DNA from: a virus
DNA length: 34,173 nt
Strand: one strand, 5' to 3'
Virus genome (UHGV): UHGV-0113711
The position numbers and the translations under genes were made by a program. Positions 1 to 1,514 of this stretch are shown one piece after another. The notes beneath the pieces are model-generated. The model saw nothing but the letters and a program-made list of their open reading frames with translations, made no database searches and had not been told where the DNA came from. Numbering within the stretch: the first letter of the stretch is position 1; every line of letters begins with the position of its first letter.

Positions 1-1451
1 GAAACAAAGATCAGCGTGCCCTGATACAGTTCCAGTGCCATGTTCAGCGACTCAATGGATTCCATATCCAGGTGGTTGGTCGGTTCGTCCATGATCAGAA
101 TGTTCGGCTTCTGCATCATTAACTTACCAAACAGCATCCGCCCTTTTTCCCCACCGGAAAGCACTTTAGCTGGCTTTTTGATGTCGTCCTGGCTGAACAG
201 CAAACGACCGAGAATGCTGCGTACCGCCTGCTCGTCATCGCCTTCCTGCTTCCACTGGCTCATCCATTCGAACACGGTCAGATCATTTTCAAACTCATAT
301 TCGTGGTCCTGAGCATAGTAACCAATGCGCGCGTTCTCAGACCATTTTACGGTGCCGCTGTCCGGTTGCAGATCGCCCACCAGCGTTTTCAGCAGCGTTG
401 ATTTACCGACGCCGTTGGTACCCAGTACCGCCAGTTTTTCACCCACTTCCAGCAGCAGGTTGAGATTTTTAAACAGCGGACCGTTATCAAACCCTTTGGT
501 CAGACCTTCCACTTCCAGCGCGTTACGGAACAGTTTCTTATCCTGTTCAAAACGGATGAACGGGTTCTGACGGCTGGAGGCTTTCACCTCTTCCAGTTTG
601 ATTTTATCAATCTGGCGCGCGCGCGAAGTTGCCTGGCGAGATTTCGAGGCGTTGGCGCTAAAGCGGCTAACGAAAGATTGCAACTCAGCAATCTGCGCTT
701 TCTTCTTGGCGTTATCGGCCAGCAGACGTTCACGCGCCTGGGTCGCCGCCGTCATGTACTCATCGTAGTTACCCGGATAAACGCGCAGCTCGCCGTAATC
801 CAGATCCGCCATGTGGGTACAGACCATGTTAAGGAAGTGACGGTCGTGCGAGATGATGATCATGGTGCTGTCACGCTCGTTCAGCACCTGTTCCAGCCAG
901 CGAATGGTGTCGATGTCGAGGTTGTTGGTCGGTTCGTCGAGCAGGAGAATATCCGGATCAGCAAACAGCGCCTGCGCCAGAAGCACACGCAGCTTCCAGC
1001 CAGGAGCAACTTCACTCATCGGGCCGTAGTGCTGTTCCACTGGAATTCCCACGCCAAGCAACAGTTCACCGGCGCGAGCTTCCGCAGAGTAACCGTCCAT
1101 TTCGCCGTATTTAACTTCCAGATCGGCCACTTTATAGCCGTCTTCTTCACTCATTTCCGGCAAAGCATAGATGCGGTCGCGCTCCTGCTTCACTTCCCAC
1201 AACTCTTTATGCCCCATGATCACCGTATCCAGCACAGTGAACTCTTCAAAGGCAAACTGATCCTGACGCAGTTTACCAATGCGCTCGTTGGGATCGAGGG
1301 AAACGTTACCCAGCGTCGGCTCAAGGTCGCCGCCGAGGATCTTCATAAAGGTGGATTTACCACTACCGTTCGCGCCAATCAGGCCGTAACGGTTGCCGCC
1401 GCCAAATTTGACGGAAATGTTTTCAAACAACGGCTTACTGCCGAACTGCAT
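1..1451 (-). CDS. ybiT: ABC-F family ATPase (tandem ABC ATP-binding domains), N-terminal ~483 codons; the 3' end lies beyond the window start
   Basis: Reverse-complement translation from the ATG at 1451..1449 gives [41 protein letters not shown] (Walker A), [11 protein letters not shown] (Walker B), a second Walker [20 protein letters not shown] signature [10 protein letters not shown] and [14 protein letters not shown]-rich, enterobacterial codon usage. The ybiT name rests on recollection of E. coli YbiT, not on a search. The plus-strand track ORFs 40..312, 325..570 and 678..1481 are antisense to this gene. Confidence 0.85.
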
Positions 1452-1514
1452 GGTGATGTTGTTGCTAAGGAGCAAAATTGATACTCTCTACTAAGTGATT
1501 GAAAGGATTAGAAT

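Follow-up and report, generated by a model that had tools for sequence, protein, structure and literature searches.

A very probable attL of a large serine integrase in the first codons of ybiT of Escherichia coli, where an arm of the inserted element supplies a near-native start to the gene

The window analysed here, a stretch of 34,173 nt (UHGV virus genome UHGV-0113711), is E. coli chromosome, and a 500-bp probe of its junction matches the chromosomes of strains MS 115-1 and 2021CK-01361 at 100% identity. The minus strand of positions 1-1475 carries the 5' 491 codons of the ABC-F ATPase gene ybiT, whose product has two ABC_tran domains and an ABC_tran_Xtn domain (Pfam). In K-12, ybiT and ldtB are neighbours that are transcribed divergently and lie 218 bp apart, and in MS 115-1 a mobile element spans from ybiT to ldtB. 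The ybiT part of the window is found in all but 3 of 5,426 complete E. coli genomes, and a recombinase gene adjoins ybiT in 60 of these genomes (1.1%). Identity of that integrase to the one in the window is 100% in two of the 60 occupied genomes, 92-93% in five and 80-90% in 53. The features at the junction, in window coordinates, are as follows.

1..1452, minus strand: host part of the ybiT coding sequence (ABC-F ATPase), beginning with the third base of codon 8; identical to K-12 ybiT.
About 1428-1452: B half-site of the original attB, within the ybiT coding sequence.
1453..1456, no strand: core GTGA, common to attL, attR, attB and the rebuilt attP; from the attL/attR/attB alignment.
1455..1475, minus strand: element-supplied ybiT codons 1-7, TTG CTC CTT AGC AAC AAC ATC (M-L-L-S-N-N-I), with a candidate TTG start at 1475..1473.
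1455..1489, no strand: element-derived P' arm of attL, a block conserved across three integrase lineages and reaching 35 bp from the centre.
1476..1489, minus strand: a stretch of 14 nt just before the TTG (gene sense AGAGAGTATCAATT), nearly invariant in nine P' arms from nine genera.
1503..1507, plus strand: AAGGA resembling a Shine-Dalgarno sequence, 7 nt ahead of the integrase ATG; from reading of the sequence.
1515..3020, plus strand: large serine recombinase (integrase), 501 aa; from Pfam, an AF2 model with Foldseek, and matches in the database of Durrant et al.

The original prediction was that a serine-integrase element had inserted at the 5' end of this gene and left an attL, and the adjoining large serine recombinase gene, the K-12 locus and attR all agree with it. 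Alignment with the unoccupied K-12 locus, which had been proposed as a check, places the crossover. The window follows the K-12 empty site as far as 1456 and departs from it at 1457, and attR matches that site beginning with the G of GTGA; this confines the crossover to GTGA at 1453-1456, which puts the insertion point at ybiT codon 8. The three sites align around the core as shown below.

attB (K-12): ..GAACTGCATG GTGA CGTTACTGGAAAC..
attL (window): ..GAACTGCATG GTGA TGTTGTTGCTAAG..
attR (MS 115-1, locus L001, 38072-38075): ..AACTATATT GTGA CGTTACTGGAAAC..
In short form: attB ..CATG[GTGA]CGTTACTGG; attL ..CATG[GTGA]TGTTGTTGC; attR ..ATATT[GTGA]CGTTACTGG

The matching attR was located in both MS 115-1 and 2021CK-01361, where the far end of the element adjoins codons 1-7 of native ybiT and the intergenic region between ybiT and ldtB. 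The window stops at the stop codon of the last gene of the element and attR lies 60-63 bp beyond its last base, which is why attR could not be found from the window alone. Measured from core to core and without insertion sequences, the element is 32,780 bp long. Base composition had been taken to place the junction further to the right, around 1470-1480. The drop in GC content is real (0.52 at 1351-1450 to 0.35 at 1451-1550), but the true junction at 1453-1456 is 15-25 bp to the left of that place, and composition misplaced it since the arm of the element imitates the host sequence. In all occupied loci compared, the junction reads ..AACTGCAT-N-GTGA-YR-TTGTT... The base to the left of GTGA (1452, the third base of ybiT codon 8) tracks the genus of the host, giving ACC, ACT or ACG, and the two bases to the right track the integrase lineage, so that the exchange is bracketed to the same GTGA throughout. 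Taken together, positions 1428-1489, approximately, are very probably the attL left by the integrase encoded at 1515-3020, formed when the attP of the element recombined with an attB overlying the first codons of ybiT.

The 501-aa product is accepted as a large serine recombinase. It matches Pfam Resolvase (PF00239, 4e-20, residues 8-163) and Recombinase (PF07508, 2.3e-14, residues 192-284), and the zinc ribbon is weakly verified (Zn_ribbon_recom, PF13408, residues 296-338, E=0.027, 15.3 bits against a cut-off of 25.3). The catalytic motif Y11-I-R-F-S15-S16, R13 included, is invariant in 23 homologues. An AlphaFold (AF2) model built from the 23 homologues is of low confidence (pLDDT 64, pTM 0.35) and serves as supporting evidence. 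Its domain order is a catalytic domain, a long helix, a helical domain, a beta-ribbon, two long helices and a C-terminal sheet; helix 123-155 followed by the helical domain fits a resolvase-type catalytic domain joined to a Recombinase domain, and the beta-ribbon (300-324, pLDDT 32-56) precedes long helices at 363-423. The best PDB matches of the model in Foldseek are full-length serine integrases, including 9dxh_A (6.9e-12) and PhiC31 integrase, and 312-318 columns align with the RD-ZD-coiled-coil portion of LI integrase (4kis, E 1e-7) as well as with 9dxh and 9tep. The sole recombinase at either end of the element is of this resolvase/recombinase type rather than a tyrosine integrase. Among 50,697 sequenced phages no close relative of the integrase was found, the best matches being YbcK-like proteins at 30% identity. 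Directly after the integrase gene is a 245-aa ORF (3179-3916, plus strand) which has no match in Pfam, NCBIfam or PADLOC and is conserved in the L3Cip3-type element; by its position this ORF may be one candidate for an accessory or directionality factor.

The remainder of the element, 3945-34173, is phage-like and encodes terminase, portal, a 634-aa protease-capsid fusion, very large tail/fibre proteins, a DUF2163 protein and lysozyme. No close relative of this body was found among the 50,697 sequenced phages (best terminase match 52%, Escherichia phage DCP80), and no repressor or replication genes are annotated in the element. The copy in the window is free of insertion sequences, at 13648-15531 and over the whole element, and matches neither complete assembly exactly: in MS 115-1 an IS3 lies in the terminase gene, and in 2021CK-01361 there are two copies of ISEc68, one before a truncated terminase and one in the large tail protein. 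A retron reverse transcriptase-Toprim fusion of type I-C and the Ec67/Eco2 family is encoded at 8588-10357 (minus strand), scoring 709 bits with NCBIfam retron_Ec67_fus and 716 bits with PADLOC RT-Toprim_I-C. Its msr/msd RNA was not located, a non-coding stretch (10358-10787) lies upstream, and Rfam detects no RNA family anywhere in the window. A TIR-domain protein (6326-7222, plus strand) matches the PADLOC candidate system PDC-S35 at 237 bits and is preceded and overlapped by a 95-aa ORF (6039-6326, plus strand) with no family match, making 6039-7222 a possible two-gene defence cargo. Identity of the window element with a 34-kb element with 26-bp repeats at 19 min, as a host of retron Ec67, was considered and rejected: the retron here is of the Ec67 family only, and the canonical Ec67 and Ec86 retrons lie in a prophage related to 186 (Dodd and Egan 1996, as cited in PMC6868368).

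The attP of the element was rebuilt by joining the P arm from attR to the P' arm from attL, and dyad symmetry was scored by comparing the left arm with the reverse complement of the right arm at 27 candidate centres. Symmetry is 15/25 at GT (1453-1454) and at most 11/25 at the 26 other centres; 42 of 5,000 shuffled sequences score 15 at any centre (p about 0.008). A 4-bp GTGA core together with an imperfect attP dyad centred on GT is in keeping with a serine-integrase att site, and GT at 1453-1454 is the predicted crossover dinucleotide. Around it the sites are predicted to read as follows.

attP: ..CTTTGAAACTATATT-GT-GATGTTGTTGC..
attB: ..CATG-GT-GACGTTACTGG..

The four half-sites have a common motif at positions 2-9 from the centre, which reads AACTATAT in P, AACAACAT in P', AACTGCAT in B and AGTAACGT in B'. 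By serine-integrase chemistry, dimers of the integrase would bind attP and attB and cut at the central GT with 2-nt overhangs, one pair of half-sites would rotate by 180 degrees, and religation would yield attL and attR; excision would require a separate directionality factor. Searches of IMG/VR and JGI metagenomes with two degenerate patterns found no intact attP of the kind expected in an excised circle or free phage, and the IMG/VR contigs with a 100% identical integrase begin in ybiT, indicating that they are prophage cuts. Given that neither an excised attP nor a close phage integrase was found, present-day activity and excision of the element are putative; both complete genomes also carry IS insertions in the element.

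Relatives of the integrase that are 74-93% identical occupy the same position in ybiT in nine genera and in two otherwise unrelated elements; hosts include E. coli, Enterobacter, Leclercia, Klebsiella, Hafnia, Erwinia and the sources of several metagenome contigs. The occupant in O111:H- 11128 is an 8.7-kb island (locus L008, 754-9520), and many EHEC genomes share this occupant of the site. Its cargo consists of the integrase, an HTH protein, an HNH endonuclease, a small resolvase/invertase and a DNA methyltransferase. The island, whose integrase is 75-80% identical, also occupies the site in other genera, at Klebsiella, Hafnia and Erwinia loci (L015-L020). Comparison of the O111 island with the window element by blastn and tblastx finds only the att arms and the integrase gene in common (70.5% over 1,545 nt), and it is therefore the integrase that determines the site. 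L3Cip3 and PSS-15, which also carry ybiT-integrated prophages, have an IS621 (IS110 family) just downstream of ybiT (L005 374-1354 and L007 374-1354).

The integrase and its sites have entries in existing catalogues. Cluster11330 in the computed database of large serine recombinases and att sites of Durrant et al. (2022, Nat Biotechnol 41:488, PMC10083194, supplementary file 3) has a representative (NZ_BFHK01000006.1 1852-3357) that is 98% identical to the window integrase over the 399 aa given there. The attB of the cluster, as listed in that file, is the ybiT site centred on TGGTGACG; the published attB string is present in K-12, and its left half is present in the window at 1408. The right half of the listed attP is identical to window 1453-1506 at 52 of 54 positions; this attP comes from the L3Cip3-type element, and its P arm (..GAAAAAGCATA|GTGA) differs from that of the window element. 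As it appears in supplementary file 3, the entry carries no crossover dinucleotide, target gene or gene reconstitution. Ec05 (WP_032346692.1), listed under 'experimentally characterized large serine recombinases' in supplementary file 4 of the same paper, is 80% identical to the window integrase and has the same attB, and its listed attP is the O111-type attP which was rebuilt here independently from attL and attR. Ec05 is carried by the 8.7-kb island, whereas the carrier of the window integrase is a 33-kb phage-like element. The same chromosomal position appears, as ybiT/ybiS, as E. coli defence-island hotspot 30 in the supplementary table of Hochhauser et al. (2023, PMC10121019), occupied in 16 of 1,296 genomes, and that occupancy of 1.2% is close to the 1.1% found here (60/5,426). 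In that table the hotspot is defined by its flanking genes alone, without integrase type, att site or crossover. Main-text literature yielded no ybiT integration by a serine recombinase or prophage and no att strings, the records being in supplementary tables only. The window attL therefore belongs to an integrase-att pair that has already been catalogued, and it is ordinary in kind. The crossover at GTGA/GT, the target at ybiT codon 8 and the mimicry of the N-terminus at the protein level appear to be undescribed.

It is extremely improbable that the junction is not the att site of the adjoining integrase, with the boundary lying elsewhere or another recombinase being responsible. Against this stand the exact reconciliation of attL, attR and attB with a 4-bp core, the absence of any annotated tyrosine integrase or transposase at either end, the use of the same site by unrelated elements that have only this integrase in common, and the independent prediction of the same attB in the literature. 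An unoccupied locus that is identical through 1452-1514 would place the junction elsewhere, but the K-12 empty site diverges from 1457.

What the insertion does to ybiT depends on where the gene starts. The ATG at 1451..1449, 63 nt from the integrase ATG at 1515, can be read from the sequence as the original prediction had it, but this codon is Met9 and not the start of ybiT; the native gene begins eight codons upstream, at a GTG. The K-12 gene (b0820) begins GTG TTA GTT TCC AGT AAC GTC ACC ATG and the solved YbiT chain 9njf_Y (530 aa) begins MLVSSNVTMQFG, both of which agree with the N-terminus MLVSSNVTM given in the original prediction. The suggestion that the arm of the element rebuilds a near-native 5' end also holds, the chimera reading MLLSNNIT against MLVSSNVT. 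Over codons 1-7 the element supplies MLLSNNI in place of MLVSSNV with 12 of 21 nt identical, the frame kept and no stop. A 530-aa ybiT ORF thus persists at attL, and the gene is not split in the manner of comK, sigK or spsM. PGAP annotates the 530-aa ybiT from the TTG, a putative translation start, in MS 115-1 and 2021CK-01361. PGAP is inconsistent between other loci (L006 1633-3201 against L004 1633-3225), calling 530 aa from the TTG in O111 11128 and 522 aa from Met9 in LR-46.

The likeness is greater at the level of protein than the nucleotide identity predicts. When the full set of 19,683 sequences mismatched at the nine differing positions was enumerated, 114 (0.6%, p about 0.006) kept a start, had no stop and matched the native protein as well; the BLOSUM score is 19 over 6 residues, which is reached by 0.6% of the alternatives with the same mismatch positions. 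With mismatches at random positions instead, 0.02% do as well (p=0.0002). The other five reading frames have no such similarity, and Ser4 is kept through unrelated codons, TCC and AGC. The frame and the protein similarity are thus kept beyond chance, and the chimera may be a reconstitution of the kind seen in icd and tRNA genes. Native YbiT N-termini in 120 Enterobacterales clusters follow [M/V]LV[ST][SN]N[VI]TMQFG, and residues 3-8 of YbiT align with the equivalent strand of its own NBD2 and of YheS. Based on this homology, the octapeptide would be the first beta-strand of NBD1 in the ABC fold and not a dispensable extension.

Alignment of P' arms of the window, O111 and PSS-15 types places their divergence from 1490 on. 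Conservation of the P' arm extends 35 bp from the centre, across the TTG and the 14 nt before it, and that of the P arm about 15 bp. In this small sample of nine arm types, all six variable P' sites fall within ybiT codons 1-7, at codon positions 1, 3, 1, 3, 3 and 1 and none at position 2. The peptides encoded by the P' arms are MLLSNNI, MLLCNNI and MLLCNNV, and in five of the nine arm types the peptide is identical or conservatively changed. It is possible, though unlikely, that recognition by the integrase has produced the near-native N-terminus as a side effect and that accident, not selection on YbiT, has kept the ORF. One protein binds both P' and B' and part of the similarity near the core is therefore expected, as seen in the motif shared by the half-sites and in a nucleotide identity between B' and P' that peaks in the first 10 bp (7/10) and falls off beyond them. 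Against this stand a protein similarity above that predicted from nucleotide identity by either enumeration, the coding of Ser4 by unrelated codons, a start codon exactly at the native position, and the lack of any second-codon-position change among lineages. Likewise, conservation of P' for 20 bp further than P is a difference that a symmetric binding requirement leaves unexplained.

The arm might instead be the captured 5' end of ybiT from another host, acquired through an old imprecise excision and since drifted, which is quite unlikely. Natural orthologues such as MLVTNNIT in Lonsdalea and MLVSSNIT in Pantoea are near MLLSNNIT, but Leu3 or Cys4 occurs in none of the 120 listed natural YbiT sequences outside lysogen-type chimeras. 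Serine integrases are also established to excise precisely, and whatever the origin of the arm, later purifying selection would still be needed. The P' arm, with its TTG and seven codons (MLLSNNI), imitates the native GTG start and MLVSSNV, and the lysogen retains the 530-aa YbiT ORF. We hold with moderate confidence that selection for a functional YbiT maintains this arm of the element.

Integration moves codons 1-7 of the native gene to attR, 32.8 kb away and next to ldtB, together with the AGGA ribosome-binding site, the promoter region and the entire ybiT/ldtB intergenic region. The Shine-Dalgarno match before the TTG is weak, and a crude consensus scan detected no sigma-70-like promoter within 300 bp upstream of the chimeric gene. 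Promoter candidates within attL or the rebuilt attP (e.g., TTGATT-15-TATATT in the P arm) were rejected as too weak to represent either an integrase promoter split by integration or a promoter for ybiT. The conserved stretch at 1476-1489 is a candidate for a weak ribosome-binding region or for the outer part of an integrase half-site. Chimeric ybiT may be poorly expressed in lysogens, and ybiT is not essential. From the displaced upstream region, the lack of a promoter-like site, the TTG start with its weak Shine-Dalgarno and this non-essentiality, one could argue that ybiT is effectively silenced in lysogens and that its intact frame has no functional consequence. We regard this as doubtful, since the supplied codons are constrained at the protein level, ybiT is annotated as intact in 30 of 30 occupied E. 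coli genomes among the matches listed, long-established O111/O103 lineages included, and the promoter scan is a crude one. A bolder version of the selection hypothesis is that the P' arm is a selected mimic of both the N-terminal strand and the translation start of YbiT, and that lysogeny shifts YbiT to expression signals borne by the element. This version is very unlikely to be correct; if it were true, it would represent the deliberate rewiring of a ribosome-binding ABC-F factor by a defence-carrying mobile element, which goes beyond the avoidance of damage.

Two sets of known integrating elements offer comparisons. Phage 21 and e14, which integrate in icd, and elements that integrate in tRNA genes carry within attP a substitute for the end of the target gene, which leaves the gene intact after insertion. 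These elements use tyrosine integrases, have long identical cores and replace the 3' end of the gene, whereas the ybiT element uses a serine integrase with a 2-4-bp core and replaces the 5' end together with the start codon and all expression signals. Unlike the substitutes for icd and tRNA genes, which match their targets at the DNA level, the substitute for ybiT resembles its target at the protein level. Serine-integrase insertions of A118 and phi10403S in comK, SPbeta in spsM and skin in sigK break the reading frame, which excision restores. The ybiT element is like these in having a large serine recombinase and a site inside a protein-coding gene, but differs in that the reading frame is retained while the element is integrated. 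The locus also provides a natural pair of att sites of about 50 bp each, with a predicted GT core, for a recombinase group that is already of interest for genome engineering. The ybiT element illustrates in detail how a serine integrase can take the 5' coding end of a conserved gene as its target and still leave the gene undestroyed, and its substitution at the protein level bears on how such elements limit the cost to their hosts.
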